Positions 2,752 to 49,115 of a stretch of DNA of 64,000 nucleotides are shown here, piece by piece. The DNA comes from a bacterium. Lineage in GTDB: Bacteria; Patescibacteriota; Minisyncoccia; Minisyncoccales; CG1-02-41-26. Positions within the stretch are counted from its first letter, which is position 1; each line of letters starts with the position of its first letter. The stretch spans positions 24,404 through 88,403 of the forward strand of contig JAUSHZ010000007.1 of assembly GCA_030648255.1 (NCBI GenBank). The letters are read 5' to 3'. The translations under genes and the position numbers were made by a program. The notes under the pieces are model-generated. The model made no database searches and was not told the DNA's origin. It saw nothing but the letters and a program-made list of their open reading frames with translations.

Positions 2752-2868
2752 TTATGCGCCTTGGCGCTGTTTGTGTTTTGGAGTTTTGCAAATAACATAA
2801 ACCCTCCCCTTTCTTCTGGCGATTTTACAATCCTTACATAATTTTTTTACTGATGGTTTAACCTTCAT
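2752..2868 (-). CDS. rpmJ: 50S ribosomal protein L36
   Basis: rc gives [38 protein letters not shown] (38 aa, CxxC..C..H); absent from ORF track (<60 aa). Confidence 0.9.
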
Positions 2869-3085
2869 GTTAGAAGCTGTGTGAATTTTTAAATTTAATG
2901 ATTTGAAAATTCATTACAGATTCTTACACCCCGTTAAGTGCGAGCGATTAGCAAGCTACTTAACTGGGGTTTGTTTGTATTTCTATCCACACCCCAGTGA
3001 AGTAGAATTTGAGTACAAATTCACTTCACGGGGTAAATTCCGCTTGCCAATCGCGCTTCGCCTGCTGGCTCGCACTCTTGGAGCG
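2869..3085 (-). repeat. repeat copy infA|rpmJ (Y, A, R1)
   Basis: as above; tail ..ggagcgtcattta abuts infA TGA. Confidence 0.9.
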
Positions 3086-3358: not shown

Positions 3359-4738
3359 CTAGAAAACCATTTCTATCTTTATCTTATCTAGGCTTTTTGG
3401 CGCTCTTTTTATCCAAAAAGGCCAAAATTGCGTGTCCAGTCGTTCAATTTGGGGGTAGCTATTATTCAATAAAATCTCCATATCTTCTTTAGATTTTCCA
3501 GCTAAATCCGCAATTAAGGCTGTTTGGTCAATATCATTATAAAGCTTGGCATCTGTTTTTAAATTAAAAATCAAACTCCCTTTTTCCGTAATGCTGCCTT
3601 TTGGAACTACGCTTGTCGCTAAGCTTTGTTCGTATAATTTCTTTGAAGAAGATAGTTTTGTATCAATAAAGCTTTTGGCCATATCCTGCAAATCTGATCC
3701 CTTAAAAACAATTGTCTTAGCTTTTATTTTTGCATAACAATTAAATTCAGCGAGGTTGGCGCCAACAGCTTGAGAACAAGAGAACTCGGGCTCGCCATAG
3801 TCAACTGATTCTTGGTTAAAAGAAAATCCAGCGGTTGTTTGCTCCTTCAAGCCCGAAACAGCCATTTTTTTTAACTCCCTAATCAAGCTTTCTTGAGCAT
3901 TATCCATATCTCCTTGAGTTACTTGATCAACTTCTTTCTGACCCCCGCCGTCAATTTTTTCTCTTGATTCACCCCAAACATTATAGTATAAAGCTGTTCC
4001 TGTTAATCCTGGAATAGAAAACTTAGCAGGGGCTATATTATATTCCTCTCCCTCCTGATCAGCGACAACCTGAACCTCTGTAATGCTTGGGGTTAATTTT
4101 CCATTAAACAATGTGGCTTGGGGCAAAGAAATCTTATTTTTTGCCCGATAAACCTTTCCATCTTTTGATGATATAAATCTTGTTCCTGCTTTTAAGTTTA
4201 AGGGCATTGGGGGATTAATATTATTGTAAACAAATATAGCGCCCGTTGCCCCAGATTGTTCTGTTTCTTTTCCAGTTGACTTAAATGTTTCCCATTTCTC
4301 TACTTCTTTTTCAATTACATTTCCGGGAATAATCTTTTTTTCAAAATCGATTTGCGCTTGAGAAAAAGAAACTTGAATCTCGTCTTTAATTGTAATTGGC
4401 TCTAATAGCGGTTTCACGCTTATTTCTGCTTTTGCCTGCATCGTTAAATATAAAAAGGCTCCCCCTAAAAGCAAAATGGCTACACCAATAACTATGGGAA
4501 TTTTTAGAGCAAGTCTTGGTAAAGTAAAAGAAACTCGAATTTCTTTTTTTCCCTTGCCACGTCGGAGTTCCGCAGGAACGGAGGCGGGTCTTTCTTTTTT
4601 CACCTCCCCCTTCTTCATCCCCTTTCTTGTAGGTGATTTTTTTTGAGGCTTAGTTGAAGCTAAAACAATTGGAAATTGTTCCTCTGTTTCTTCTGCTTCT
4701 TCCTCATCTGGATTTGTTATATCAATAATTTGCTTCAT
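3359..4738 (-). CDS. hypothetical membrane-anchored protein (acidic/basic N-term, single TM, large extracytoplasmic domain)
   Basis: 459-aa ORF; one hydrophobic helix IPIVIGVAILLLGGAFLYL; no recognisable family. Confidence 0.55.
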   Translation of the reverse strand: MKQIIDITNPDEEEAEETEEQFPIVLASTKPQKKSPTRKGMKKGEVKKERPASVPAELRRGKGKKEIRVSFTLPRLALKIPIVIGVAILLLGGAFLYLTMQAKAEISVKPLLEPITIKDEIQVSFSQAQIDFEKKIIPGNVIEKEVEKWETFKSTGKETEQSGATGAIFVYNNINPPMPLNLKAGTRFISSKDGKVYRAKNKISLPQATLFNGKLTPSITEVQVVADQEGEEYNIAPAKFSIPGLTGTALYYNVWGESREKIDGGGQKEVDQVTQGDMDNAQESLIRELKKMAVSGLKEQTTAGFSFNQESVDYGEPEFSCSQAVGANLAEFNCYAKIKAKTIVFKGSDLQDMAKSFIDTKLSSSKKLYEQSLATSVVPKGSITEKGSLIFNLKTDAKLYNDIDQTALIADLAGKSKEDMEILLNNSYPQIERLDTQFWPFWIKRAPKSLDKIKIEMVF

Positions 4739-4866
4739 GTTAGAAATTCTTAATTGAGTGGCGAATTTATGAGCCGTGAAATTTAGAAGTTTTTAGTCCT
4801 CCGTAAATTCAAACTTCGCCTACTGACTCGTTTTCATTAACGGATTACTTATTCTACCACAAAAAT
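4739..4866 (-). repeat. degenerate repeat copy alaS|hypothetical (leader X + tail R3; central hairpin missing)
   Basis: gttagaaattcttaattgagtggcgaatttatgagccgtgaaatttagaa..gtcctccgtaa..attaacggattacttat. Confidence 0.8.
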
Positions 4867-6615
4867 TTACTGCTGCAAAATCGCTTTAATTCGCCGAACG
4901 CCAGCTGAACTGGCTTCTTCTTTAATAATTTTAAATACGCCCAAAGTTTTGGTATTTTCAACATGAGGACCAGCGCAAATTTCTTTAGAGAACTCTCCTG
5001 CGGAATAAACTTTCACTTTTTCTGGATACTTGTGGCCAAAAACTCCTGTGGCCCCTTCATCAAATGCTTTTTGAGTTTCCATTTCACGGCAAACAACAGG
5101 CAACTCCTTTTTTATTTGCTCGTTAACTAAGTCCTCCACTTTTTTTATTTCTTCTGGGGTTAATTTTCTTTCAAAAGAAAAATCAAACCTTATTCTTTCA
5201 GAAGTAATATTGCTACCTTTTTGCTGAACATCCCCTCCCAAAACTTGCCTTAAAGCAGCCAGCATTAAATGAGTGGCTGTGTGGTATTTTGTGGTTTGTT
5301 CAGAATCATCAGCTAAGCCGGATTTAAACTGCCCAGCACTGGCTGTTCTAGACAACTCTTGATGCTTTTTTAATTCCTCTTGAAAACCTTTTTCGTCAAT
5401 TTCCTTGTCTTTCTCCTTGGCAATCTCTCTTGTTATTTCTAAAGGAAATCCGTAAGTTTGATAAAGATTAAAAACCTCTTCCCCAGAAATAATTGGCATA
5501 TTTATTTTTTCAAATTCTTTTAATCCCCTGTCTAAACAAGTTAAAAATCTTTCTTCTTCTTTTTGTAGTTCATTTAAAATAAACTCCTGATTTTCTTTCA
5601 GTTCTGGGTAAACATTTTCATACATAGCAATAATAACTTTAGCAATCTCGCCCGTAAAAGCGCTCTCAATACCCAACAGCTTGCCGTATCTTATTGCCCG
5701 CCTTATTAATCTCCGCAACACATATCCTCTTTCTGTGTTTGACGGAACAAGCCCATCGGCTAATATAAAAACGCTGGCTTTTATATGGTCTGCAATAATG
5801 CGAAAAGATTTTGTATTTTCCTCATATTGCTTTCCCGAAATTTCTGAAATTCTATTTATTATCGGAGTAAACAGCTCTGTTTCATAAACATTACTTTTTC
5901 CTTGCAAAACCATTGTAGTTCTCTCCAGGCCCATGCCAGTGTCCACATTTTTCTGCGATAATTCTTCAAACTTTCCGTCTGCAGTTTTGTTATACTGCAT
6001 AAAAACATTGTTCCAAATCTCCACCCATTTTTTATCGCTTGGGTCAAATTTTTCAGGAACTTCCCCCTCTCCAACCCAATAAAACATTTCTGTGTCTGGG
6101 CCGCAGGGCCCTGTACTTCCTGCTGGGCCCCACCAATTATCCTCACGGCCCAAATAAGCAATCCGCTCTGGCTTAACCCCCAAACCTTGCCAAAGATTAA
6201 AGGCCCCCTCGTCTTTTGGTATATTATTTTCTGTTTCACCTTCAAAAACCGTAAAAGCTAACTTTTCCAAAGGAATATTTAATTCTTTAGTTAAAAATTC
6301 AAAGCTCCATTCAATGGCCTCTTTTTTAAAATAATCCCCCAAACTCCAATTACCAAGCATTTCAAAAAATGTTCCATGGGTGTTGTCCCCCACATCATCA
6401 ATATCACCCGTTCTAATACATTTTTGGCTATTGCAAAGCCGTTTACCTAGGGGATGGTTTTCCCCAAGCAAATAAGGCACCAATGGGTGCATACCTGCTG
6501 TGGTAAATAAAACTGTTGGGTCGTTTTCTGGAATTAAAGGGGCAGATGGTATTCTTTTGTGTCCCTTGTTCTCAAAAAACTTTAAATATTTTTCTCGTAT
6601 TTCTTTAGCTGTCAT
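4867..6615 (-). CDS. alaS: alanine--tRNA ligase, short form (catalytic plus editing-like region, no C-terminal domain)
   Basis: MTAKEIREKYLKFFENKGHKRIPSAPLIPENDPTVLFTTAGMHPL...; HTATHLM motif. Confidence 0.85.
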   Translation of the reverse strand: MTAKEIREKYLKFFENKGHKRIPSAPLIPENDPTVLFTTAGMHPLVPYLLGENHPLGKRLCNSQKCIRTGDIDDVGDNTHGTFFEMLGNWSLGDYFKKEAIEWSFEFLTKELNIPLEKLAFTVFEGETENNIPKDEGAFNLWQGLGVKPERIAYLGREDNWWGPAGSTGPCGPDTEMFYWVGEGEVPEKFDPSDKKWVEIWNNVFMQYNKTADGKFEELSQKNVDTGMGLERTTMVLQGKSNVYETELFTPIINRISEISGKQYEENTKSFRIIADHIKASVFILADGLVPSNTERGYVLRRLIRRAIRYGKLLGIESAFTGEIAKVIIAMYENVYPELKENQEFILNELQKEEERFLTCLDRGLKEFEKINMPIISGEEVFNLYQTYGFPLEITREIAKEKDKEIDEKGFQEELKKHQELSRTASAGQFKSGLADDSEQTTKYHTATHLMLAALRQVLGGDVQQKGSNITSERIRFDFSFERKLTPEEIKKVEDLVNEQIKKELPVVCREMETQKAFDEGATGVFGHKYPEKVKVYSAGEFSKEICAGPHVENTKTLGVFKIIKEEASSAGVRRIKAILQQ

Positions 6616-10937: not shown

Positions 10938-12221
10938 CTACAAGTTTTCGTAGTCCCTCATTTCCATTTGGGCTTTTACTTGCCTCCAAATATCCAAAAC
11001 CACAGAAACCACAATCAATATGGCAGTTCCTCCAATTAAAAATTGAAAAGCCACCACCCCTGTTATCCCCTGAATAATTGAAGGCATTACCGCAATTAAG
11101 CTTAAAGATAAAGCGCCAATAAAAAGTGTGCGGTATAAAATCTTTTGCAAAAACTTGGCAGTTGATTCCCCCGGCCTAATGCCTGGCACAAAGCCACCCA
11201 TTTTTTGCAAGTTAGTGGCAATTGATTTTGGGTCAAAGGTAACGGCTGTGTAGAAAAAAGTAAACAGAAAAACCAAAACAAAAAATAGAGATCCGTTCAC
11301 CCAAACATTTGATAAAAATAATGAAACTGCCTTGGCGGTATTGGCAATAAAAGCGTTTCCTCCAACAGTTAAAAAATTAGCAATCATTGTAGGGAAAAGT
11401 AAAATGCTTAAAGCAAAAATAATAGGAATCACGCCAGCCGGGTTTAAATTAATTGGCAAATAAGTGGACACACCTCCATACATTTTATTGCCCCGCACTC
11501 TCTTGGCATAGTTAACTGGAATATTTCTTTTCGCTTCAGTTATTAAGACAACTCCAGCAATAATTACCAAAGCAATGATAAAAAATGCAATATATGGAAG
11601 CGCTTTTGAAGAGTCCCAACTTAAAGCAATTTGTCTGATTTGCGAAGGCGTATCAGCCACAATGCCAGCAAATATCAAAATTGAAACACCATTACCAACA
11701 CCCTTTTCAGTAATAAGTTCGCCAAGCCACATTAAAAATAACGCCCCCCCAGTAATTGTGATAATAGAGGTAATCATTTGCCACGCTGGCAAAACAGCAA
11801 TGGCTCCCTGTTTCTGAAATAGCATTAACATTGCGTAGGCCTGTAATACTGCTAAAGGCACTGTTAAAATTCTGCCATATTTATTAAACCTGGCTCTGCC
11901 TGCTTCTCCTTCTTCTTTATACATTTTTTCCAAAGCTGGAAAAATCATTGTTAAAAGCTGAATAATAATGGTTGAAGTGATATACGGGCCCAAGCCAAGC
12001 ATAACAATTGATAAATTAGAAAAAGCCCCCCCGACGAAAACATTTAAAAGCCCCAAAAGCTCGTTTTGGCTAAAAAATCTTTTTAAATTTTCTAAGTCAA
12101 TCCCTGGAATGGGAATGTTAGCGGCCAATCGTGAAACAGCCAACAAAGCCAAAACAAATAGAATTTTATTTCTTAATTGTTTGTCTTTAAATATTAATAA
12201 TAGTTTTTGAAACCACTCCAT
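10938..12221 (-). CDS. secY: preprotein translocase subunit SecY
   Basis: 427 aa, 10 TM, operon position. Confidence 0.93.
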   Translation of the reverse strand: MEWFQKLLLIFKDKQLRNKILFVLALLAVSRLAANIPIPGIDLENLKRFFSQNELLGLLNVFVGGAFSNLSIVMLGLGPYITSTIIIQLLTMIFPALEKMYKEEGEAGRARFNKYGRILTVPLAVLQAYAMLMLFQKQGAIAVLPAWQMITSIITITGGALFLMWLGELITEKGVGNGVSILIFAGIVADTPSQIRQIALSWDSSKALPYIAFFIIALVIIAGVVLITEAKRNIPVNYAKRVRGNKMYGGVSTYLPINLNPAGVIPIIFALSILLFPTMIANFLTVGGNAFIANTAKAVSLFLSNVWVNGSLFFVLVFLFTFFYTAVTFDPKSIATNLQKMGGFVPGIRPGESTAKFLQKILYRTLFIGALSLSLIAVMPSIIQGITGVVAFQFLIGGTAILIVVSVVLDIWRQVKAQMEMRDYENL

Positions 12222-12409
12222 GTTAGTAATTCTTAATTGAACGGCGAATTTATGAGCTGTGAAATTTAGAATTTCTTACACCCCGTGGAGTAGAAATTTG
12301 CTCTGCAAATTTCTATTTTAAATTTTTTACTAAAAATTTAAAATTACTCCACAGGGTAAATTCCGCTTGCCAATCGCGCTTCGATTACTCAGCACTCTTG
12401 GAGCGTCAT
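12222..12409 (-). repeat. repeat copy secY|rplO (X, B, R1)
   Basis: direct sequence match to family. Confidence 0.9.
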
Positions 12410-12841
12410 TTACTTTACTGTTCCTCCTGCTTTTTCTATTTTAACTTGAGCAGCTTTTGAAACCAAGCAATCCTCAATAGTAAGTGATTTAGTAAGTTCG
12501 CCATTTCCTAAAATTTTTACCAATGGAACTTTGCCTATAATTTTTCTAATTAATTTTTTATCAACTAAAACTTCCGGGGTAATTTTGTCTCCTTTTTCAA
12601 AATTCTTTTCTAAAACATTAAGATTTATAGAGGCTGTTTCTTCTCCTCTTAATTCCTGCCTGTATCCTCTTATTTTTGGATATCTTTTAATAATCTCTCT
12701 CATAAAGGGTTGCATTTTTCTCCCAGCCCTTGATTTTTGGCCTTTGCAACCCTTCCCACAGTAAGTTCCCTTCTTGCCTCCTCTGCCAATTCTTTTTCTA
12801 TCTTTTGTCTTATTATTTGGTTGTATTTCGTGAATTTGCAT
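12410..12841 (-). CDS. rplO: 50S ribosomal protein L15
   Basis: 143 aa, Gly/Arg-rich N-term. Confidence 0.9.
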   Translation of the reverse strand: MQIHEIQPNNKTKDRKRIGRGGKKGTYCGKGCKGQKSRAGRKMQPFMREIIKRYPKIRGYRQELRGEETASINLNVLEKNFEKGDKITPEVLVDKKLIRKIIGKVPLVKILGNGELTKSLTIEDCLVSKAAQVKIEKAGGTVK

Positions 12842-13040
12842 GTTAGTAATTCTTAATTGAACTGCGAACGATTAGTGAGCTGTGAAATTTAGAAGTACTT
12901 ACACCCTGTGGAGTAGAAATTTGCTCTGCAAATTTCTGTTTTAAATTTTTAGTAAAAAATTTAAAACTACTCCACGGGGTAAATTCCGCCTTCCACTCAA
13001 ACTTCGGCTAATCGCCTCGTTTTCGTGGGGCGTCATTTAA
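12842..13040 (-). repeat. repeat copy rplO|rpsE (X, B, R2); tail 13008-13040 is translated as rpsE C-terminus
   Basis: ..cggctaatcgcctcgttttcgtggggcgtcattta in frame with S5. Confidence 0.88.
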
Positions 13041-13526
13041 CTGTTGTAAGGCCGCTACTGTTGCCCGGGCGATATTTAATTTATTTCTTGATCTTGACAA
13101 TAACTTTGATGATATATTCCTAATTCCAGCTAAACTGCAAATAACTCTTACCTGGCCGCCAGCCACCAACCCCCTACCTTTTGCCTGAGGCCTTAACAAA
13201 ACCCTTGCTGGGCCATACTTTGCTGTAACCTCATGGGGAATTGTTTCCTCAAACATTGGAACAGAAATTAAATTCTTCTTGGCCAACCGAGTTGATTTTT
13301 CAACAGCAATTGCCACATCAGGCCCCTTGGCCACACCTAATCCAATTTTTCCCTTTTTATTGCCAACCACCACAACTGCCCTAAACCTCATTTGCTTTCC
13401 TCCCTTTGTTACTCTTGTAACTCTGGCTAAATCTAAAACCACCGAGTCGAACTCATCTTTCGGTTTTGCTGGAAATTGACCTCTTCTTTCTCTATTAAAT
13501 TTTCCTTGTTGTTGCTGTTGTTCCAT
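13008..13526 (-). CDS. rpsE: 30S ribosomal protein S5 (last ~11 aa encoded by repeat-derived sequence)
   Basis: S5 dsRBD plus C-domain; tail ..[10 protein letters not shown] read through the cgtcattta motif. Confidence 0.9.
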   Translation of the reverse strand: MEQQQQQGKFNRERRGQFPAKPKDEFDSVVLDLARVTRVTKGGKQMRFRAVVVVGNKKGKIGLGVAKGPDVAIAVEKSTRLAKKNLISVPMFEETIPHEVTAKYGPARVLLRPQAKGRGLVAGGQVRVICSLAGIRNISSKLLSRSRNKLNIARATVAALQQLNDAPRKRGD

Positions 13527-13720
13527 GTTAGTAATTCTTAATTGAACGGCGAACGATTAGTGAGCTGTGAAGTTTAGAAGTACTTACACCCTGTGGAGTA
13601 GAAATTTGCTCTGCAAATTTCTGTTTTAAATTTTTTACTAAAAATTTAAAACTACTCCACGGGGTAAATTCCGCTTGCCAATCGTGCCTCACCTGCTGGC
13701 TCGCACTCTTGGAGCGTCAT
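13527..13720 (-). repeat. repeat copy rpsE|rplR (X, B, R1)
   Basis: sequence match. Confidence 0.9.
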
Positions 13721-14065
13721 TTAAAATTGTAGCCCACCTTCTCTCGCTCCTTCAGCCAACGCTTTTATTCTACCATGATATTTAAAGCCTCCTCTATCAA
13801 AAACAACTTTTTTAATCTTTTTTTCTATTGCTAATTTAGCAATTTCCTTACCAACATTAAAAGCCTTTTCTAATTTTTTCAGTTTTTTCTCTTTTGAATC
13901 GTTTGCTGAAATAATAGTTTTGCCTTTTGTGTCGTCAATTATTTGAGCATAGATATGCTGGTTTGATTTAAATACGCAAAGCCGAGGCGCGGTTGGTGTG
14001 CCAATGACTTTTGCCCTGATTCGGCTGTGTCTTCTTGTTCTTTTTTGTTGTTTTGTCTGTTGCAT
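13721..14065 (-). CDS. rplR: 50S ribosomal protein L18
   Basis: 114 aa. Confidence 0.9.
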
Positions 14066-14258
14066 GTTAGTAGTCGTTAATGAATGAGTGGCGATTAGCC
14101 ACGAGTGAATTTACGAATTCTTACACCCTGTGGAGTAGAAATTTGCTCTGCAAATTTCTGTTTCAAATTTTTAGCAAAAAATTTGAAACTACACCACGGG
14201 GTAAGTCCTCCGTAAGCTCTGGCTTCGGCTAATCGCCTTGCCATCGCTAACGGATTAC
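14066..14258 (-). repeat. repeat copy rplR|rplF (W, B, R3)
   Basis: sequence match; gtggc-gatta-gccac. Confidence 0.9.
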
Positions 14259-14819
14259 TTATTTTCCAGCTTTCTTGCCCTCTTTCTTGCGGACAATTTC
14301 ACCAAAATATCTAACGCCCTTGCCTTTGTATGGCTCTGGCTTTCTTAAAGCTCTTATTTTTGCTGCAAACTGGCCAACCTGTTGCTTGTCAAAACCAAAA
14401 ATATTTATAAATTGTTTTTCTATTTTTATAGACAAACCCCCTGGAATCTCCATAAAAATAGGGTGAGAAAAACCCAAGTCCAATCTTATTTTCGATTCTC
14501 CCTCCATAGCAGCCTTGTATCCAACTCCCCTAAGCTCTAATTTCTTTTCAAATCCAACTGAGACGCCATGAACATGGTTCAATAATAAAGCAGTGGTTAA
14601 CCCCCAGAGAGCAGGAATTTCTTTGCTCTCTTTTTCCTGTCTGCCGACAGGCAGGGCTGGCTTTACAACTAAAATATTACCTTGTTGTTCCACAACAATA
14701 CCAACAGGAATTTCCTGTTTTATCTCTCCCTTAGGCCCTTTAAATAAAACATTATCTTTTTCAAGAATAACTGTTACGCCTTGGGGTATTTCTATTGGTT
14801 TTTTTCCTATTCTTGACAT
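14259..14819 (-). CDS. rplF: 50S ribosomal protein L6
   Basis: MSRIGKKPIEIPQGV...; track prefix MKTHTISNM is artefact. Confidence 0.92.
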   Translation of the reverse strand: MSRIGKKPIEIPQGVTVILEKDNVLFKGPKGEIKQEIPVGIVVEQQGNILVVKPALPVGRQEKESKEIPALWGLTTALLLNHVHGVSVGFEKKLELRGVGYKAAMEGESKIRLDLGFSHPIFMEIPGGLSIKIEKQFINIFGFDKQQVGQFAAKIRALRKPEPYKGKGVRYFGEIVRKKEGKKAGK

Positions 14820-15021
14820 GTTAGAAATTGTGTGAGTTTTCAAGCTATAATCTTTTTTATGGCTTGAAAACTCATTACAAGTTCTTACACCCTGTGGAGT
14901 AGAAATTTGCTCCGCAAATTTCTGTTTTAAATTTTTTACTAAAAATTTAAAACTACTCCACGGGGTAAGGTATCCGTAAGCTCGGGCTTCGCCTGCTGGC
15001 TCGCCCTCGCTAACGGCTACC
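14820..15021 (-). repeat. repeat copy rplF|rpsH (Z, B, R3)
   Basis: 13-bp hairpin tgagttttcaagc/gcttgaaaactca. Confidence 0.9.
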
Positions 15022-15411
15022 TTACCACACTTCCACCATTAATTCACCTCCGACTTTATCTTTTCTGGCTTGCTTATCTGTTAATAAACCATTGGTGGTT
15101 GAAACAATAGATAAGCCATAGCCACTTCTTACCTTTGAAATCTCGTCTGCTTTTTTATAAATTCTTTGCCCTGGCTTTGAAATCCTTTTAAACCCAGAGA
15201 CGGCTGGCATCTTTTCATTATATTTTAACTGTATTTTTATAATTTGAAACGGCTTTTTCCCTTTTTTCTTGCAATCCAAAATAAGCCCCTCTGCTTTTAA
15301 AATTTCAGCAATTGAGTATCTTAGTTTTGAAAAAGGAACATCGGTTGTTTTATGGAAAACAACTTGAGCGTTCCTTATTCTATTAAACATGTCTGTTATT
15401 GGATCGGTCAT
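15022..15411 (-). CDS. rpsH: 30S ribosomal protein S8
   Basis: MTDPITDMFNRIRNA... Confidence 0.92.
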   Translation of the reverse strand: MTDPITDMFNRIRNAQVVFHKTTDVPFSKLRYSIAEILKAEGLILDCKKKGKKPFQIIKIQLKYNEKMPAVSGFKRISKPGQRIYKKADEISKVRSGYGLSIVSTTNGLLTDKQARKDKVGGELMVEVW

Positions 15412-15612
15412 ATTAGAAGTTGTGTGAGTTTTCAAGCTATAATTTTTTTTATGGCTTGAAAACTCATTACAAATTCTTATACCCCGTGGAGTAGAAATTT
15501 GCTCTGCAAATTTCTGTTTTAAATTTTTTACTAAAAATTTAAAACTACTCCACAGGGTAAGTCCTCCGTAAGCTCTGGCTCGGCTGTTGCCTCGCCATAG
15601 CTAACGGATTAC
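15412..15612 (-). repeat. repeat copy rpsH|rpsN (Z, B, R3)
   Basis: sequence match. Confidence 0.9.
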
Positions 15613-15798
15613 TTACCAAGACGACTTCTTAATCCCGGGTATTTCTCCTTTACTTGCCATTTCCCTAAAACAAATTCTGCACAAACCAAAGTCCCTTATA
15701 AATCCCCTGTACCTTCCGCACTTAAAACATCGCCTCACTATTCTTGAAGAAAACTTTGGTTTTCGGTTTGATTGATTAATTAATGATTTTTTTGCCAT
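15613..15798 (-). CDS. rpsN: 30S ribosomal protein S14 type Z (zinc)
   Basis: 61 aa, CxxC..CxxC. Confidence 0.9.
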
Positions 15799-16020
15799 GT
15801 TAGTGATTCTTAATTGAACGGCGAGCGATTAGCGAGCTGTGAAATTTAGAATGACTTACACCCCGTTAAGTGCGAGCGATTAGCGAGCTACTTAACTGGG
15901 GTTTCGTTGTATTCTTACCCCACCCCAGTGAAGTAGAATTTGAGTACAAATTCACTTCACGGGGTAAGGCTCTGCTACCGCTCAACCTTCGCCTTCGGCT
16001 CGGCTTCACGGGCAGAAGCC
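15799..16020 (-). repeat. repeat copy rpsN|rplE (X, A, R2-like); tail 15975-16020 translated as rplE C-terminus
   Basis: taccgctcaaccttcgccttcggctcggcttcacgg ~ R2 consensus. Confidence 0.85.
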
Positions 16021-16577
16021 TTAAATGGAAACCCCAGCAATCTTAATAATGCAGCGCCTTCTTCCTTTGTTTTGGCTGTTGTTGAAATTGTTACTTCTAA
16101 TCCAAAAATGCCTTTCTCTTTTTCAACTTTCAATTCAGGAAATGGAACATACTCTTTAAATCCAACTGTAATATCTCCTTGGCTTGTCATAGATTTCTCT
16201 TCAACGCCCCTAAAGTCTCTAGACCTTGGCAAAACAACCCAAATCAACTTCTCTAAAAAATCATACATTCTTTTCTTTCTTAAGGTGCAGCTGGCTCCAA
16301 CCGCCATACCTTCTCTTAGCTTGAAAGCAGCAATTGATTTTTTTGCTTTATTTAGAGATGGTTTTTGCCCGGTAATAGCGGCTATTGATTGAGCAATATA
16401 TTCTTCCGCTTTTTCTCTCTCACTGGCGCTTTTTCCAATAACCATTTTGCCAAAACCGCAATTAACAACAATCTTCTTTATTTTTGGCACAGCCATAACA
16501 GAACTATACCCGAATTTCTTCGTCATTTCAGGAATAACTATTTTATTGTATTGCTCTTGTAATTTCATATTTTTCAT
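15975..16577 (-). CDS. rplE: 50S ribosomal protein L5 (C-terminal ~14 aa encoded by repeat-derived sequence)
   Basis: start taken at MKNMKLQEQYNKIVIPEM after 22-bp hairpin; tail ASAREAEPKAKVER. Confidence 0.85.
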   Translation of the reverse strand: MKNMKLQEQYNKIVIPEMTKKFGYSSVMAVPKIKKIVVNCGFGKMVIGKSASEREKAEEYIAQSIAAITGQKPSLNKAKKSIAAFKLREGMAVGASCTLRKKRMYDFLEKLIWVVLPRSRDFRGVEEKSMTSQGDITVGFKEYVPFPELKVEKEKGIFGLEVTISTTAKTKEEGAALLRLLGFPFKASAREAEPKAKVER

Positions 16578-16586
16578 GAAGCTGTC

Positions 16587-16641
16587 GAAGCTGTTGAAAC
16601 CGAGCTTCTGGAAGCCCTTGAAGCTCGGTTTCAACAGCTTC
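16587..16641 (-). repeat. perfect 22-bp inverted repeat (distinct from main family) directly upstream of rplE
   Basis: gaagctgttgaaaccgagcttc-tggaagccctt-gaagctcggtttcaacagcttc. Confidence 0.9.
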
Positions 16642-16655
16642 AGGCTCCATAGCTT

Positions 16656-16961
16656 TTAAATATCAGCTTTGCATTTCTTGCAAATTCTAACTTTATTTTC
16701 TCCTTCTACCTTATAGCCAATTCTTGTGGGTTTATTGCACTTAGGACATAAAGCCTGCGCTTTGGAGGCATTCATTGGAAAAGAAATTTCCACAATTTGC
16801 CCTTTTTCTCCTTGTTTTTTTGGCTTTTTATGCGTCTTTTTTATATTAACTCCTTCAACCAAAATCATTTCCTTAGATGGAAAGCTTTTTAAAACCTTGG
16901 CTTTCTTGCCTTTATCCTTGCCAGCGATTATTAAAACATTGTCTCCTTTTTTGATTCGCAT
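16656..16961 (-). CDS. rplX: 50S ribosomal protein L24 with C-terminal zinc ribbon
   Basis: MRIKKGDNVLIIAGKDKGKK..; CPKC..CKKC. Confidence 0.9.
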   Translation of the reverse strand: MRIKKGDNVLIIAGKDKGKKAKVLKSFPSKEMILVEGVNIKKTHKKPKKQGEKGQIVEISFPMNASKAQALCPKCNKPTRIGYKVEGENKVRICKKCKADI

Positions 16962-17177
16962 GTTAGAAATTGTGTGAGTTTTCAAGCTATAATCTTTTTT
17001 ATGGCTTGAAAACTCATTACAAGTTCTTACACCCTGTTAAGTGCGAGCGATGAGCGAGCTACTTAACTGGGGTTTGTTTATATTATTCTCATACCCCAGT
17101 GAAGTAGAATTTGATTACAAATTCACTTCACGGGGTTAAGCGATTGTAATGCTCGGCTATCGCCTCGCAGACAATCG
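16962..17177 (-). repeat. repeat copy rplN|rplX (Z, A, R4)
   Basis: sequence match; IR agcgattgt/acaatcgct at rplN TAG. Confidence 0.9.
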
Positions 17178-17546
17178 CTAAACAACATCTTTAGCCATGG
17201 TTATTATGGCATCAAATCCTTTTTCTTTTAATTCTCGAGGAACCGGCCCTAAAATTCTATTTCCTTTAGGCTGTTTCTGATCATTTAAAATACAGCAAGC
17301 ATTGTCATCAAATCGCAAATAGGAACCGTCTTTTCTTCTAAACGGACTCTTTTGCCTTACAATAACGGCCTTAACAACCTGATGTTCCTTAACATCGCGC
17401 CTTGGCTCTGCTTTTTTAACCGCTGCAACAATTATGTCGCCAATTCTTGCATATTTCTTTCTTGTGCCTCCAGGCACCCCAAAACACTGAACTATCTTAG
17501 CTCCAGTATTATCTGCCACATTTAACATTGTTCTTAACTGAATCAT
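17178..17546 (-). CDS. rplN: 50S ribosomal protein L14
   Basis: MIQLRTMLNVADNTGAK. Confidence 0.93.
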   Translation of the reverse strand: MIQLRTMLNVADNTGAKIVQCFGVPGGTRKKYARIGDIIVAAVKKAEPRRDVKEHQVVKAVIVRQKSPFRRKDGSYLRFDDNACCILNDQKQPKGNRILGPVPRELKEKGFDAIITMAKDVV

Positions 17547-17550
17547 GGGT

Positions 17551-17778
17551 TTATTTTTTTACTACTTTCCAACACTTATCTTTACTCAAAGGCCTTGACT
17601 CTTCTATTAAAACCTTGTCTCCAATTTCAAAAATATTGCCCGCTGTATCTGCCTTATACTTTTTCGAAGATGTGTATCGCTTTCTGTATTTTGGATGCAC
17701 CTTTATTGTTTCCACTTTCACCACAACAGTGTTTGTCATTTTATTGGAAACTATTTGTCCTTTTAATATCTTTTTCAT
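17551..17778 (-). CDS. rpsQ: 30S ribosomal protein S17
   Basis: 75 aa. Confidence 0.9.
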   Translation of the reverse strand: MKKILKGQIVSNKMTNTVVVKVETIKVHPKYRKRYTSSKKYKADTAGNIFEIGDKVLIEESRPLSKDKCWKVVKK

Positions 17779-17966
17779 TTTTTTATTAAAGTTAATATGC
17801 GAGCTATATTTCTTCTTGATGTTCTTATCTGTCTAATATCCTTTATTTTTCCAGCAGCCAAATCAAATCTAAAAACTCGAAGATTTTCTTGCTTTTCCCT
17901 CAATGATTTTTGCAAATCATCTTTGCTTAATTTTGAAAGCTCTTTTAGCGCTTCTTGTCTTTTCAT
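17775..17966 (-). CDS. rpmC: 50S ribosomal protein L29
   Basis: 63 aa coiled coil. Confidence 0.88.
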   Translation of the reverse strand: MKRQEALKELSKLSKDDLQKSLREKQENLRVFRFDLAAGKIKDIRQIRTSRRNIARILTLIKK

Positions 17967-17967
17967 A

Positions 17968-18375
17968 CTATTTTTTTACAAATTTAACTTTAATTGGCAA
18001 TTTATCTGAGGCCTTGCCAAACGCCTCAACAGCAATCTTTTCATCCACTCCATCAATTTCAAATATCACTCTACCAGGTTTTATCGGAAAAACATAATGG
18101 TCAACAGCCCCCTTGCCTCCACCCATTCCAACTTCTCCGCCTTTTTGCGTAATTGGTTTTTGGGGGAATATCCTAATCCATAGCTTACCCTTTCTTTTCA
18201 TTGCTTTTGTAATAGCTTTTCTAGCTGATTCCATTTGGTTGGCTGTAATCCATTTTGTTCCCATTGATTTCAATCCAAAAGAACCATAGGAAACTTCTGT
18301 TCCTCTTGTATCATTTCCTTTGCTTGTGCCCTTATGCCATTTCCTATGTTTCATTTTTCTTGGTTGTGTCAACAT
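17968..18375 (-). CDS. rplP: 50S ribosomal protein L16
   Basis: MLTQPRKMKHRKWHKG... Confidence 0.92.
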   Translation of the reverse strand: MLTQPRKMKHRKWHKGTSKGNDTRGTEVSYGSFGLKSMGTKWITANQMESARKAITKAMKRKGKLWIRIFPQKPITQKGGEVGMGGGKGAVDHYVFPIKPGRVIFEIDGVDEKIAVEAFGKASDKLPIKVKFVKK

Positions 18376-18566
18376 GTTAGAAGCTGTGTGAATTTTCAAA
18401 TTTAATGATTTGAAAATTCATTACAGATTCTTACACCCCGTGGAGTAGAAATTTGCTCTGCAAATTTCTGTTTTAAATTTTTAGTAAAAAATTTAAAACT
18501 ACTCCACAGGGTAAATTCCGCTTGCCAATCACGCTCGCCTGCTGGCTCGCGCTCTTGGAGCGTCAT
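18376..18566 (-). repeat. repeat copy rpsC|rplP (Y, B, R1)
   Basis: sequence match. Confidence 0.9.
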
Positions 18567-19226
18567 TTAATTAAAGCGTTCTCCCTTATACATCCAAACC
18601 TTAACGCCAATAACCCCATAAGTGCAGTGTGCCTCGCATGAGCCATATTCAACTATGGCTCTTATTGTTTGAAGCGGAAGTCGCCCATCTTTTAACCATT
18701 CTCTTCTGGAAATTTCAACTCCATTTAACCTACCTGATACCTCAACCTTCACGCCTTTTATTTCTTTTTGCTCAGCTGTTTTGCTTATTGCCATTTTCAA
18801 AACTCTTCTAAACGGCACTTGCTTTTCGATTTGGCCAGCCATCCATTGAGCTGTTAAGCTGGCTGAAAGCCATGGGTTTCTTATTTCAATAATTTCTATT
18901 TTAATGCTGTTTTTATCTGTTTTTATCTTCCCCTTTACTTTTGATATTGCTTTTTCAATTCCCATTTTCAAATCCTCAACTCCTTTGCCCCCCCTGCCGA
19001 TAATCAAAGCGGGTCTGGAAGTTTTAATAATAATTTTTAAGGCAGCGGATGTTCTCTCTATCTCTACTTCCTGAATAATACCCGCGGGTAGCTTCTTAGT
19101 GATAAACTGCCTAATTATAAAATCCTCCTCTAAGTAAACAGGAAAATTGTTCTTATAAAAGCCTCTTGAAAGCCAGTCTTTCATTTCTCTTATCTTAAAA
19201 GATTTTGGGTTGACTTTATGGCTCAT
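18567..19226 (-). CDS. rpsC: 30S ribosomal protein S3
   Basis: KH domain, 219 aa. Confidence 0.93.
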   Translation of the reverse strand: MSHKVNPKSFKIREMKDWLSRGFYKNNFPVYLEEDFIIRQFITKKLPAGIIQEVEIERTSAALKIIIKTSRPALIIGRGGKGVEDLKMGIEKAISKVKGKIKTDKNSIKIEIIEIRNPWLSASLTAQWMAGQIEKQVPFRRVLKMAISKTAEQKEIKGVKVEVSGRLNGVEISRREWLKDGRLPLQTIRAIVEYGSCEAHCTYGVIGVKVWMYKGERFN

Positions 19227-19576
19227 ACTTTTGATTTATCTTGTTTAAAAATATCTAAATTTAAAGTAATATTAGAAGTTTTCTTTTCTATTCTACAAGC
19301 CCTGCCCCTAGCTCTGGCCCTCCATCTTTTAAGGGTTCTGCCCTCATCAACTTTAATTAAGGAAATAAACAAATCTTTTTCTTCTAATTTAAAATTGTTT
19401 TTAGCGTTGGCCACTGCTGAATCCAAAAGCTTTTTTAAAGGCAAGGCTCCTTTTTTAATGCAAAATCCTAAAGATGCTTGGGCTTTCCCAGCAGATTTTC
19501 CTCTAACCATATCAGCCACCAAGCGAACTTTTCTGGGTGATATTCTTAAATTGTTTAATTTTGCTATAACTTGCAT
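19223..19576 (-). CDS. rplV: 50S ribosomal protein L22
   Basis: MQVIAKLNNLRISPRKVRLVADMVRGK; 18-aa track prefix is repeat read-through. Confidence 0.9.
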   Translation of the reverse strand: MQVIAKLNNLRISPRKVRLVADMVRGKSAGKAQASLGFCIKKGALPLKKLLDSAVANAKNNFKLEEKDLFISLIKVDEGRTLKRWRARARGRACRIEKKTSNITLNLDIFKQDKSKV

Positions 19577-19776
19577 GTTAGAAATTGTGTGAGTTTTCAA
19601 GCTATATTTCCTTATGGCTTGAAAACTCATTACAAGTTCTTACACCCCGTGGAGTAGAAATTTGCTCCGCAAATTTCTGTTTTAAATTTTTAGTAAAAAA
19701 TTTAAAACTACTCCACAGGGTAAATTCCGCTTGCCAATCGCGCTTCGCCTGCTGGCTCGCGCTCTTGGAGCGTCAT
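19577..19776 (-). repeat. repeat copy rpsS|rplV (Z, B, R1)
   Basis: sequence match. Confidence 0.9.
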
Positions 19777-20103
19777 TTATTTCTTTACTGGTACTGGTGC
19801 TTTAGGTTGGGTTTGAGTTTGCACTTTTGATTCTTGCTCTCTTTGCATTTTTCCGCCATGCCTGCCAAACTTCGTGGTTGGGGAAAATTCTCCTAATTTA
19901 TGGCCAACCATATCTTCTGAAACATAAACGGGAATATGCTCTTTTCCATTATGGACTCCAAAAGTAAAGCCAACCATTTCTGGTGTAACAGAACACTCGC
20001 GAGACCATGTCTTAATAACTTTTTTCTCGCCAGCTTTCTGGTTGATGACTTTTTTTATTAATCTTTCGTCCACAAAAGGACCCTTTTTTAGTGATCGTGG
20101 CAT
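19777..20103 (-). CDS. rpsS: 30S ribosomal protein S19
   Basis: [15 protein letters not shown]. Confidence 0.93.
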
Positions 20104-22014: not shown

Positions 22015-22641
22015 CTATTTACTCTTTTTCTTATTTACTATTGAACTTGTAATCTCTACAAGCGTTCCTCGCCTGCCAGGGATGGCGCCTTTTACTGCAA
22101 TCAAATTATTTTCCAAATCAATTTTAACAATTTTTAAATTTCTCACCGAAATTCGCACAAATCCCATATGGCCTGGCATTCTCTTGCCCGGGAAAACTCT
22201 ACCCGGGTCAGTAGCACCAACCGAACCAATTGTTCTTACTTCATGCTTTGTGCCATGGGTTGTGTGATGCCCCCTAAAATTATATCTCTTAACACCTCCT
22301 TGAAACCCTTTGCCCTTGCTAATACCTGAAATTTTAACTTTATCTCCTTCTTGAAAAACAGAGGCATTAATCTCCTGCCCTAATTCATAATTCTTAATTC
22401 CTGATTCCTGAGGCCTGAACTCTTTTAAATATCTATACTCTTTGCCTTTCTCGGTTTTCTTAATTTTTCTAGCTTTTTTTTCAAAACCAATCTGAACCGA
22501 TTCATAGCCATCTTTGCTTTCCTTGGTCTTATTTTGTAAAACAACACAAGGCCCAGCTGTAATCAAAGTTACTGGGACTGCATCTCCCTTTTCATTAAAT
22601 ATTTGAGTCATCTCTAATTTTTTTCCAAGAATAAATGACAT
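22015..22641 (-). CDS. rplC: 50S ribosomal protein L3
   Basis: 208 aa. Confidence 0.92.
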   Translation of the reverse strand: MSFILGKKLEMTQIFNEKGDAVPVTLITAGPCVVLQNKTKESKDGYESVQIGFEKKARKIKKTEKGKEYRYLKEFRPQESGIKNYELGQEINASVFQEGDKVKISGISKGKGFQGGVKRYNFRGHHTTHGTKHEVRTIGSVGATDPGRVFPGKRMPGHMGFVRISVRNLKIVKIDLENNLIAVKGAIPGRRGTLVEITSSIVNKKKSK

Positions 22642-22941
22642 GTTAGAAGCTGTGTGAATTTTTAAATTTAATGATTTAAAAATTCATTACAGATTCTTAC
22701 ACCCTGTGAAGTAAAATTTGAGTACAAATTTTAATTTTAAATTTTTTACTAAAAATTTAAAATTACTTCACGGGGTTAATAATCCGTAAGCTCAAGCTTC
22801 GCCTGCTGGCTCGCTCTCGCTAACGAATTATTAAAAACACGAGGCATTAACTCCCCGCATTTTTGTTAAAAACTCAAGGGTTAAATTCTTCCCACTTTCA
22901 AGGGTTAAACTAATTAAGTTTTACCTTGAACTCTATATTAA
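22642..22941 (-). repeat. repeat copy rpsJ|rplC (Y', A/B hybrid core, R3) plus ~110-nt unique tail with tttaacccttga direct repeat
   Basis: ccctgtgaagtaaaatttgagtacaaatt..ttactaaaaatttaaaattacttcacgggg. Confidence 0.88.
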
Positions 22942-27088: not shown

Positions 27089-27550
27089 TTATCGGGCTAG
27101 ATAAGCAAAAGCTTTGTTGGCTTCGGCCATTTTATGGACATTGATTTTCTTTTTCACTGCCTCGCCCTCCCCCTTGCTTGCCTGCATAATTTCTTCAGCT
27201 AATCTGCTGGCCATATCTTTGCCTTTTTTCTTTTGGGCAGATGAAATAAGCCATCTCATGGCCAAGCTCAAAGCCCGTTTGTCTTTAACCTCTCTGGGCA
27301 CCTGATAAGTAGCTCCCCCAACACGCTGTGGCCTCACTTCAACTTTTGGAGCAGCTTCTTCTAAAGCTTTTTCAAAAATATCCATTGGCTCTTGTTTGGT
27401 TTGCTCTTTGACAATATCAAAAGCGCTATAAACAATTTTTTGGGCAATGCTTTTTTTGCCTTGAGTCATTACAGTGTTTATAAATTTTGCAACAATAACG
27501 CTGTCATAAGATGAATCAGGCAATATTTCTCTTGTTTTAAATTTAGCCAT
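27089..27550 (-). CDS. rpsG: 30S ribosomal protein S7
   Basis: 153 aa. Confidence 0.93.
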   Translation of the reverse strand: MAKFKTREILPDSSYDSVIVAKFINTVMTQGKKSIAQKIVYSAFDIVKEQTKQEPMDIFEKALEEAAPKVEVRPQRVGGATYQVPREVKDKRALSLAMRWLISSAQKKKGKDMASRLAEEIMQASKGEGEAVKKKINVHKMAEANKAFAYLAR

Positions 27551-27814
27551 GTTAGTAATCGTTAATGAATGAGTGGCGATTAGCCACGAGTGAATTTACG
27601 AGGACTTACACCCTGTGAAGTAAGATTTGAGGTCTCTTCCAAAAAGTGTATTCTCTTAAACTTTTAACTATTTTTCTCTCGCATCAATTGTTAATAATCG
27701 TACCCTCAAATCTTAATTTTAAATTTTTTACTAAAAATTTAAAATTACTTCACGGGGTAAATTCCGCCAACCGCTCAAACTTCGGCTCATCGCCTCGTTT
27801 TTGCTGGGCGTCAT
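27551..27814 (-). repeat. repeat copy rpsL|rpsG (W, B-type hairpin carrying ~80-nt insertion, R2)
   Basis: ccctgtgaagtaagatttgagg..[insert]..cctcaaatc..attacttcacgggg. Confidence 0.88.
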
Positions 27815-28366: not shown

Positions 28367-29317
28367 TTACTTACACTGCTGGGGTTTCACAGAGGTGCAG
28401 GTCAATGTTCCGTCAAGTGCTGTGCACCAAGTAATTCCTGCTTTGTCTGTATCTCCAATTCCCAAACAGCCAGTCAACGCTCCACTTCCTATCATAACTG
28501 TTGTCGAAGCAGAAGACGACACCTCCAAATTATACGCCGGCGTTGTCGTCCCAATCCCGATATTACCCTTCAATATTGTTTTCGTAATACTAGTATTTCC
28601 TAAAGTTACAGAATTGCTGCCATTGCCTATAGCACTCGCTCCTATTACTATTTCATTGGTATTCCCGTCTGCTCCAGCCATTGCGTTATAACCCTCATAA
28701 ACAGAGTTACTGGAAGTTGTATTGGCGGTAACACCATCGGCAATATAAACACCAGCCTTCGTGCCATTGGCGGTGTTTTGATAACCAGTATTATAGTAGA
28801 GAGCCTGCATACCGTTAGCGGTATTTTGATAACCAGTAGTGTTTGAGAAAAGAGCCTGCATACCGTTAGCGGTATTGTAATCGCCAGCAGTATTAGAATA
28901 AAGGGCATACACGCCATTAGCTGTATTTGTATATCCTGTAGTGTTAGAGTAGAGAGATCTATAACCAACAGCAGTATTATAACCCGCTTCATTTGTACTG
29001 GCTGTTGAACTTGCCATCCCCGCTTGATAGCCAACAAAAGTATTGTATAAGGATACATCATAATGACCTGCCTGGTAGCCAATATTAGTTTTAAAGCCAA
29101 TATTATTAAAATCAATTAGATCAGTAACCGCTATACCAAGAGAGGTTAGATATGTAGTAGTAGTTGTAGCTAATGTGCTAGTACTAAAAACATCTAGAGC
29201 TCCCCCAATAGAAACATTATTACCAATTGTGGTAACAGCTTGGGCGACTATAACTACGCAAAAAACCGTTGTTATGACGCTCACTACTACAGTAAAAATT
29301 TGCTTTTTATTATTCAT
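28367..29317 (-). CDS. membrane-anchored surface protein with GYxNTANG repeats (tail-fibre / YadA-head-like) and Cys-rich C-terminus
   Basis: N-terminal TM; ~8 tandem ~14-aa repeats NTANGxxALYSNTxGY; GNIGIGTTTPAYNLEV resembles tail-fibre neck motif. Confidence 0.55.
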   Translation of the reverse strand: MNNKKQIFTVVVSVITTVFCVVIVAQAVTTIGNNVSIGGALDVFSTSTLATTTTTYLTSLGIAVTDLIDFNNIGFKTNIGYQAGHYDVSLYNTFVGYQAGMASSTASTNEAGYNTAVGYRSLYSNTTGYTNTANGVYALYSNTAGDYNTANGMQALFSNTTGYQNTANGMQALYYNTGYQNTANGTKAGVYIADGVTANTTSSNSVYEGYNAMAGADGNTNEIVIGASAIGNGSNSVTLGNTSITKTILKGNIGIGTTTPAYNLEVSSSASTTVMIGSGALTGCLGIGDTDKAGITWCTALDGTLTCTSVKPQQCK

Positions 29318-31686: not shown

Positions 31687-31756
31687 TATATCAGTATTAT
31701 GCAGGGCTGGGGGTCCTGTGAGCTGGGTGCGATTCCCAGTGCCCCGACTGTAAAGC

Positions 31757-48956: not shown

Positions 48957-49115
48957 ATTTTTTTATTATATTATAATTATATTAGAGCTGGCAATAATAG
49001 CTTTTAGGAGACCACGAGGGTACCCTCCGCGCATGTGGAGGTCTTAATACTTGTGGTAAATCCTAGGAGACGCCACTCTATAAAAATCATCTCTTTTGAG
49101 GTGTTTTTTATTATT

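Follow-up and report, generated by a model that had tools for sequence, protein, structure and literature searches.

The closest described counterparts of the repeat family treated here are the REP/BIME/REPIN sequences of E. coli and Pseudomonas with their RAYT partners, the free-standing GIY-YIG homing genes (seg) of phage T4, and the operon repeats that resemble miniature inverted-repeat transposable elements (MITEs), such as ERIC/IRU, the Neisseria Correia element, RUP, BOX and the Rickettsia RPE. The REP group are multi-copy extragenic repeats that are transcribed with operons, form inverted hairpin-forming doublets of a mosaic modular build, and have one small nuclease gene between a repeat pair with many copies besides that lack an open reading frame (ORF); REPs usually lie after genes. 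The seg genes are small GIY-YIG ORFs wedged between conserved co-transcribed genes, patchily present at orthologous sites in close relatives, with entire intergenic spacers replaced as repair-mediated copying would give; Seg proteins carry a DNA-binding domain, and to our knowledge seg genes have not been described with palindromic arms, with ORF-less miniatures, or in dozens of copies at unrelated loci per genome. The MITE-like operon repeats are ORF-less sequences of 100–250 nucleotides (nt) with inverted ends that form long hairpins in mRNA, are sited between cistrons and vary in occupancy among strains. Apart from the position of REPs after genes and the DNA-binding domain of Seg proteins, the traits listed for these three groups recur in the 64,000-nt stretch of contig JAUSHZ010000007.1 analysed here (the window; all coordinates are window positions, and its genes and their RNA are read on the minus strand), where one repeat family fills 17 intergenic gaps of 130–300 nt in 28 kb. 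An earlier note on this DNA had singled out a 13-bp hairpin, in variants called Y, Y′ and Z, that lies before the L6 gene and several others. We consider it probable that this hairpin belongs to the right-hand arm (H3) of an ORF-less miniature of a small GIY-YIG mobile element found across the Parcubacteria.

The hairpin is not a free-standing leader; it is the apical part of a ~73-nt hairpin, H3, that forms the right arm of a larger module. At 17 window junctions this module, 170–270 nt long and built of three domains (H1, H2 and H3), takes the place of the entire spacer from stop codon to ATG (Table 1). The RNA of the focal module, between the S8 and L6 genes, gives a predicted fold of −99.5 kcal/mol (z = −11.5) in which the three domains abut with no linker. 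H1, a hairpin, begins at the upstream stop codon or on it. The stem of H2 (CCCYGUGRAGUA/UACUYCACRGGG) bears two small hairpins, giving a three-way junction with zero unpaired nucleotides, and there is an alternative version of H2 that consists of two hairpins; the two small hairpins are found in both orders, with their loops reverse-complemented. In the base of H3, GUGU-A-AGNN-N-NNNN pairs with NNNN-N-NNCU-A-ACAU, and the A and U of the start codon AUG lie inside the helix. The 13 nt between the apical helix and the AUG, which had been taken as the place where a Shine-Dalgarno (SD) sequence would normally sit, are paired and not free: they form three 4-bp helices, split by 1 × 1 mismatches, with GUGUAAGAAYUUGUAA on the 5′ side, and no unpaired stretch is left at the SD position.

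The minimal H3 is ~46 nt long, and its apical slot holds dozens of unrelated near-perfect palindromes in different copies, some of which are H2-like stems. Two more H3 tops in the window, W and V, are unrelated in sequence to Y, Y′ and Z, and all five would be alternative occupants of one hypervariable apical slot above an H3 base that is invariant. Copies of the Kaiserbacteria type have an H1 that is the reverse complement of their H3, and the module there has terminal inverted repeats and is one large imperfect palindrome of which each arm is a hairpin; left arms within the window have diverged or been truncated, and H1 and H3 types assort independently there.

The copies named in the earlier note do exist as perfect 13-bp helices with the arms and loops that it described, in plus-strand letters, antisense to the genes (Table 1), and copies of the same type in the window do not differ in their stems. 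No perfect 13-bp hairpin arose in ten mononucleotide shuffles of the window sequence. A tenth copy that the earlier note did not have, at 2882–2913, is a Y/Y′ hybrid whose single mismatch reads C·A on the mRNA strand and T·G on the plus strand. Within a module, the left arm offers no complementary partner to a Y or Z helix, which argues that the local hairpin itself is what is kept.

Covariation statistics on the copies plus homologues had been proposed as a check, and shuffle-based statistics of this kind bear the pairing out. When 24 distinct Y/Z-type leaders, taken from the window, from four relatives and from metagenome contigs, are aligned, 98.1% of the cells are standard pairs and both sides have changed in 8 of the 24 pairs (39 cells); none of 500 column shuffles reached the observed values, and slid registers pair in 24–49% of cells. 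The base of H3 was aligned as 82 distinct basal sequences, with 14 nt taken from each end and the apex swapped for a GAAA linker so that the alignment is gap-free, and here both sides have changed in 10 of the 14 columns (117 cells), values again reached by none of 500 shuffles. These 82 sequences follow the pattern 4 bp, A·A, 4 bp, 1 × 1 mismatch, 4 bp: the fifth column is A opposite A and never pairs (82/82), and in the tenth two pyrimidines usually face each other. Covariation of the basal helices extends across class-level lineages, and an A-U/G-C change at helix position 4 is seen with different helix tops. Twelve distinct Z-type leaders, drawn from the window, from three relatives and from metagenome contigs, show 0.019 pairwise differences per site for the 13-bp stem, against 0.225 for the loop and 0.038 for the base, making the stem 12 times less variable than the loop. 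The pairing is thus under constraint, and the view that it reflects more than recent copying is upheld by the low variability of the Z-type stem and by paired changes that hold in the larger alignments; part of the pairing nonetheless stems from an origin as a DNA palindrome.

The earlier note had gone on from covariation to selection on RNA structure. The paired changes and the constraint on pairing are borne out, but simple selection for the stability of an mRNA hairpin is supported only in part. Selection on an mRNA helix is expected to tolerate G·U wobbles and to purge A·C mismatches, and H3 on the mRNA strand fails this test with the signature reversed. Counting isolated mismatches with two Watson-Crick pairs on either side, we find 30 A·C versus 6 G·U in H3 (in the apical stems alone 39 A·C, 4 G·U, 10 A·A, 10 C·C, 3 A·G and 1 U·U), and the predicted H3 fold is stabler on the antisense strand in 182 of 198 copies (−17.7 versus −13.2 kcal/mol). 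H1 on the mRNA strand is the mirror image of this, with 46 U·U, 14 A·G, 13 G·U and 3 A·C, and its fold is stabler in the sense direction in 148 of 182 copies. On mRNA, H1 acts like a helix selected for stability, and the mismatches that H3 holds are only the most destabilising ones. The A·C excess does not come from a general strand-specific mutation bias, since the counts for H2, in those loci and on that strand, are symmetric (49 A·C versus 42 G·U). The spectrum is at odds with simple selection for mRNA hairpin stability and fits two readings: a leader helix at the start codon that is retained yet weak, or a mirror-symmetric, element-level constraint on the strand that reads inward from either end.

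The connection with a nuclease gene is seen in related loci. In one of them (L086) an 89-amino-acid (aa) ORF lies within the H2 stem and encodes a GIY-YIG domain protein (Pfam PF01541, E = 1.3e-14), and a tblastn search of all loci gave 21 matches, about a dozen of them full length, with the GIY-YIG ORF at the H2 position. In the 12 copies whose flanks were read, nearly all of the ORFs start 12–17 nt past the 5′ strand of the H2 stem, and the last codons of the nuclease, ...RLKSY(L/F)TGCK, coincide with the 3′ strand of the H2 stem followed by GGGUGUAAG. The codons for ...Y-L/F-T-G-C-K correspond to the conserved AUUUAACAGGGUGUAAG, and the ORF ends inside H3, where its stop codon is the UAA of the UCUAA motif, and the host gene's ATG comes where H3 ends. 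In order, the full element comprises H1, the 5′ H2 stem strand, an 86–90-aa GIY-YIG gene, the 3′ H2 stem strand, H3 and the host ATG; ORF-less miniatures have two small hairpins in the place of the ORF, which give the perfect three-way junction described above.

The nearest solved proteins are of the UPF0213 group (chains 1zg2 and 1ywl, E = 1e-5 and 1.4e-3 over residues 2–67), which were deposited as hypothetical proteins and whose branch we take to include YhbQ and the Slx1-type structure-specific nucleases. There are 478 homologues in the protein database at E ≤ 1e-5, the best 120 of which are 68–100% identical and, where named, come mostly from Patescibacteria. In 20 homologues Y4, Y6, Y17, G19, R27, E29, H31 and E51 are invariant, as is a C-terminal RLKSY..G. 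A DNA alignment of the ORF-carrying element of a close relative with the window modules shows H1, the H2 stem and H3 in common, and the S12–S7 module contains a remnant (27605–27691, minus strand) that is 78.6% identical over 84 nt, with frame-breaking indels, to the 3′ third of the 267-nt GIY-YIG ORF of locus L042 (nt 177–261, at the end of that ORF). The shared H1, H2 stem and H3, together with this remnant inside a window module, argue that the window modules are ORF-less miniatures of the GIY-YIG element. Locus L042, from the close relative STD1_120, carries two identical copies of the 89-aa GIY-YIG element ~500 nt apart (4357–5112 of that locus), each of which precedes a different small membrane-protein gene.

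By its L6 protein the window falls in the Patescibacteria (Paceibacteria), with relatives that are 66–90% identical, and the ribosomal operons of four relatives (L001–L004; L6 identity among the fetched relatives 66–83%) were compared with it at every junction. No module with the H3 motif was found in the ribosomal operons of L002; L001 has two motif-bearing modules and two degenerate H3-like leaders, and in L003 the H3 motif marks 12 modules, of which four occupy junctions left empty in the window (EF-Tu–S10, L23–L2, L2–S19 and L16–L29). The S14–S8 junction is filled in L001, L003 and L004 and empty in L002, and the S19–L22 spacer, filled in the window, is 17 nt long in L001 and L002. Empty junctions measure 5–30 nt, and at filled junctions the entire stop-to-ATG spacer has been swapped. 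Some empty sites resemble deletion footprints: TAACATG is one example, and another is the S8–L6 spacer of L001 and L002, which matches the final ~19 nt of a W-type H3 but for one difference. At one and the same orthologous junction the H3 tops and H2 versions can vary between genomes (S3–L16, for instance, has a Y-type H3 in the window and a Z-type H3 in L003), and this, with the independent assortment of H1 and H3, indicates that parts of modules recombine. Copies sit in sense orientation and, to judge from this patchy occupancy, have been gained, lost and recombined between close relatives.

Beyond these relatives, an exact-pattern scan of species-representative genomes gave 90 stretches, and among the 84 listed nearly all are from metagenome-assembled genomes (MAGs) of Patescibacteria, including Paceibacterota, Kaiserbacteria (isolates named for 49–58% G+C), Gribaldobacteria, Komeilibacteria and others; exact matches in other phyla are few, as many as chance predicts. 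One relative genome (JAQULB01) has at least 27 exact-pattern matches, and a metagenome scan for the Y/Z-type base gave at least 120 stretches; there were no matches in IMG/VR to indicate viral carriage. Start codons were surveyed with an anchor made of the 5′ half of H3 only, which found 163 distinct copies. In 147 of the 163 an ATG stands right after CTAA[CT], in 12 it comes after two extra nucleotides, and a real ORF follows in 151. The N-termini encoded downstream include DnaK-, GroEL-, NusA-, SSB-, L27-, L11-, S11- and L24-like sequences, and among the copies found no module served divergent genes from both ends.

None of the known systems fits this element as a family: REP/RAYT, homing genes, MITE-like repeats, integron attC sites and Rfam families all fall short. 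In place of the Y1 HUH transposase of REP/RAYT the gene between the arms here is GIY-YIG (PF01541), and in place of the REP foot GTAG the foot is GTGTAAG...CTAAC (GTTAG on the other strand; GTTAG/GTAAG); with neither a Y1 HUH gene nor a GTAG foot, membership of that family was rejected. The modules also differ from REPs in abutting start codons, in filling the stop-to-start spacer and in having a three-way-junction centre. The encoded protein has the GIY-YIG catalytic domain with the conserved motif residues of homing genes, but unlike a Seg protein it is a bare catalytic domain of 86–90 aa. Like MITEs the modules are short, ORF-less and multi-copy, share their ends with a longer ORF-carrying partner and have terminal inverted repeats, but that partner does not encode a recognised transposase; unlike the MITE-like operon repeats they show no consistent target-site duplication and have no DDE-transposase partner, their orientation is fixed and their fusion to the ATG exact, and the ends of the element give the stop codon and the start-codon context. 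The integron attC consensus (5′-RYYYAAC ... GTTRRRY-3′) was rejected, as the order here is GTTAGAA...TTCTAAC on both strands and the flanks are a conserved ribosomal-protein cluster, not cassettes. We found no description of this element in the full-text literature searched, nor any of UPF0213 proteins as the cargo of a palindromic repeat family. The rRNA genes of bacteria of the candidate phyla radiation (CPR) have been reported to carry GIY-YIG ORFs in insertions other than group I/II introns, along with many ORF-less unclassified insertions of <200 bp (PMC11270868), and these may be of the same element family. We put forward only tentatively, as an idea with the odds against it, the wider proposal that this is an undescribed class of selfish element: a bare GIY-YIG gene in nested palindromes whose ORF-less miniatures take the place of whole stop-to-start spacers across essential Parcubacteria operons, are neutralised by folding and not by splicing, and supply a standard, weakened structured leader, a class to which the CPR rRNA insertions and GIY-YIG ORFs could belong.

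Several facts weigh against the reading of the modules as miniatures of a mobile element. We infer mobility from patchy occupancy, and comparison of filled and empty orthologous junctions revealed no consistent target-site duplication and no clean insertion boundary (a TAA...CTAA microhomology is possible). The nuclease falls in no known transposase family, only its GIY-YIG catalytic domain having been found; the 86–90-aa proteins have no recognisable DNA-binding or target-recognition domain; and tblastn found no intact nuclease gene in the window. The mismatch spectrum of H3, opposite to that expected of plain mRNA-pairing selection, cannot be fully explained. Finally, the search patterns that yielded the related loci fix the H3 flanks, whose conservation is therefore one of ascertainment, and the copies are not independent and the shuffle controls ignore phylogeny. 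An alternative that we judge possible but on the whole unlikely is that the constraint acts on DNA only. Here the nested palindromes would be a mobility substrate, hairpins or cruciforms cut by the element's own small and putatively structure-specific nuclease or by host recombination, the compensated stems would reflect selection for competence in transposition or gene conversion, and the RNA fold would be a by-product. The entire module is an imperfect palindrome with reverse-complement arms, its central hairpins occur in both orders (flip and flop), H2-like stems are nested in the apical slot of H3, and the nearest solved relatives of the nuclease are in UPF0213, a branch presumably containing Slx1-type structure-specific nucleases; the spectrum itself is mirror-symmetric, each arm being stable on the strand whose 5′ end is the element terminus, which a symmetric DNA process fits better than does a function in mRNA. 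However, cruciform extrusion folds both strands together and would not yield a strand-specific mismatch spectrum; in the window left arms are often truncated and H1 and H3 assort independently, but H3 is complete at every filled junction, which points to selection in place at the start codon; and the near-universal orientation and abutment to real ATGs are left unexplained.

The remaining explanations fare worse. The modules might be RNA punctuation, that is, processing sites cut by RNase III or another endonuclease in H2 or at the foot of H3 so that the polycistronic transcript is split into units that end, at the 3′ side, in a stable hairpin (H1) and begin, at the 5′ side, with a hairpin or a leaderless AUG (H3). 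Each module does span exactly from stop to start codon with helices only, H1 has its stable version on the mRNA as a protective 3′ hairpin would, the start at the scanned anchors is an AUG (147 of 163, above) as leaderless initiation needs, and most window genes are without an SD sequence; but ribosomal-protein cistrons need equal output and relatives cope with 5–30-nt spacers, showing that punctuation is not required, the module has no conserved unpaired cleavage motif and no match to an Rfam family, and helices broken every 4 bp by mismatches (the Y and Z tops excepted) are poor substrates for RNase III, so that we think this explanation improbable. A cis-regulatory leader evolved by the host and unrelated to mobile DNA (an autoregulatory protein site, for example, or an RNA thermometer) could show covariation and a sequestered start codon, and the invariant A·A mismatch and the GUAAG/CUAAC foot repeat lie one helical turn apart and could form a protein-binding face. 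Such a leader is largely refuted and its probability slight, given that the same leader precedes unrelated genes, including DnaK-, GroEL-, SSB- and PilB-like ones, that occupancy of orthologous junctions differs between close relatives, that the arms are common to the nuclease gene whose pseudogene lies in one window module, and that the wobble signature is reversed on the mRNA strand. Least probable of all, with hardly any chance of being right, is recent copying alone, in which the copies are young duplicates of three or four perfect palindromes whose pairing is unconstrained: palindromes are perfectly paired from birth and copies of one type in the window have identical stems, but Z stems are identical across several genomes and metagenome contigs while their loops are 12 times more diverged, different helix tops share the A-U/G-C change at helix position 4, and the basal helices covary across class-level lineages, all of which contradict it.

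If the modules are miniatures of a GIY-YIG element, as we favour, the element would spread by nuclease-triggered repair or recombination, with the miniatures riding along. Pairing would begin as DNA palindromy and would later be kept because the insert must fold, when single-stranded, into three compact, abutting domains. The single-stranded form is most likely the polycistronic mRNA, in which folding would bring the upstream stop and the downstream start together and so make a ~200-nt insert harmless in tightly coupled ribosomal-protein operons. The host AUG would be left at the foot of a deliberately weak, mismatch-punctuated helix that the ribosome can open, and in ORF-carrying copies the ribosomes that finish the nuclease ORF would end in the 5′ arm of H3 and thereby expose the host AUG. 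Folding might also provide a hairpin or cruciform substrate for the element's own nuclease.

Other functions for parts of the module were considered and set aside. A hammerhead or other small ribozyme was ruled out, the H2 junction having no unpaired core nucleotides. At the gathering score Rfam gave no match to a module anywhere in the window, and at an E-value threshold the region 12200–15650 gave only far sub-threshold matches to a miRNA precursor and other unrelated models. Sigma-70-like promoter matches (24 versus 17.9 ± 3.8 expected) are not above chance; on the plus strand the Z-type loops contain a promoter-like TAGAAA-18-TATAAT match at 14822–14851 and 16964–16993. The terminator reading was likewise rejected, since terminator-like sites are enriched only antisense and only in AT-rich H2 variants, and by eye the GC-rich Kaiserbacteria H2 sequences have no terminator-like motif. 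In 12000–20000 the plus strand has 27 terminator-like sites versus 7.3 ± 2.9 expected, an enrichment that is almost only antisense to genes, and most of these plus-strand sites are the second small H2 hairpin followed by a T-run.

The modules lie for the most part in the minus-strand str-S10-spc-alpha ribosomal cluster (S12, S7, EF-G, EF-Tu, S10, L3 ... L15, SecY, InfA, L36, S13, S11 and S4), and in the gene map of the window L30 is not present between S5 and L15. Few genes of the window have an SD sequence. The coordinates of the helices and modules are collected in Table 1.

Table 1. Helix copies and modules in the window; junctions are named by upstream and downstream gene.
Feature	Position	Strand	Details
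Y copies of the 13-bp hairpin	2540–2571, 18389–18420	+	plus-strand letters
Y′ copies	1291–1322, 22655–22686	+	plus-strand letters
Z copies	14833–14874, 15425–15466, 16975–17016, 19590–19629	+	plus-strand letters
Focal module, S8 (rpsH)–L6 (rplF) spacer	14817–15026	−	S8 stop codon to L6 ATG; from gene map and RNA fold
Parts of focal module	H1 15026–14964; H2 three-way junction 14963–14891; H3 14890–14818; ATG 14819–14817	−	
Z-type apical 13-bp helix of focal H3	14833–14874	−	arms 14833–14845 and 14862–14874
S14–S8 module	15409–15612	−	Z-type H3, helix 15425–15466
L14–L24 module	16959–17177	−	two-hairpin H2 variant; Z-type H3, helix 16975–17016
S19–L22 module	19574–19776	−	Z-type H3, helix 19590–19629
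S3–L16 module	18373–18566	−	Y-type H3, helix 18389–18420
S10–L3 module, distal part of spacer	22639–22831	−	Y′-type H3, helix 22655–22686
S12–S7 module	27548–27814	−	long H2, V-type H3; GIY-YIG pseudogene remnant 27605–27691
L5–S14 module	15796–15974	−	H1 nearly absent; two-hairpin H2 variant; W-type H3
L6–L18 module	14063–14258	−	V-type H3
L18–S5 module	13524–13720	−	W-type H3
S5–L15 module	12839–13007	−	truncated H1; W-type H3
L15–SecY module	12219–12409	−	W-type H3
Partial module before 459-aa gene	4736–4866	−	H1 fused straight to W-type H3, without H2
InfA–L36 module	2866–3085	−	Y/Y′ hybrid H3, helix 2882–2913, one C·A mismatch on mRNA strand
L36–S13 module	2524–2751	−	Y-type H3, helix 2540–2571; fold z = −10.4
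S13–S11 module	1943–2136	−	V-type H3
S11–S4 module	1275–1489	−	Y′-type H3, helix 1291–1322

The 459-aa gene behind the partial module has homologues in L002 and L004 that give a GlxA-like Pfam match. In the S10–L3 spacer the first ~110 nt, upstream of the module (22832–22941, minus strand), stand apart and run out in a terminator-like hairpin (aaaatgcggggagttaatgcctcgtgttttt); L001–L003 have a comparable stretch at their S10–L3 junction, and it may be a ribosomal-protein leader or attenuator. The L24–L5 spacer (84 nt) contains an unrelated perfect 19-bp inverted repeat at 16578–16655 on the minus strand (gctgttgaaaccgagcttc / gaagctcggtttcaacagc), and the relatives have no insert at this junction. 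Rfam matches at the gathering score are a tRNA at 31677–31747 and a DUF3800-V RNA motif at 48983–49080, both on the plus strand. Four tandem 51-nt repeats at 28739–28939 lie within a minus-strand 316-aa ORF, which suggests that its product is a repeat-containing protein. Three minus-strand ORFs of 54, 49 and 36 codons lie wholly within modules (18402–18566, 14095–14244 and 2641–2751), two of which begin at an ATG right behind the upstream stop codon (TAAATGACGC...); they look like repeat artefacts that could be miscalled as genes.

The results carry a general caution, that covariation in a palindromic repeat does not by itself reveal which strand or which molecule is under selection. If the mobile-element reading is true, some two-thirds of the junctions between cistrons in the genome's best-conserved operons would be taken up by copies of one selfish element, and this in an ultra-small bacterium of the Patescibacteria, a lineage known for extreme genome reduction. 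It would also give a concrete repeat family to mask or annotate in Patescibacteria MAGs, including several spurious small ORFs inside modules, and a candidate role for the abundant uncharacterised 86–90-aa GIY-YIG proteins of CPR bacteria. Finally, it would provide a natural portable leader that stands before many unrelated genes in organisms mostly without SD sequences, with which the question of how their ribosomes find start codons would become experimentally approachable.

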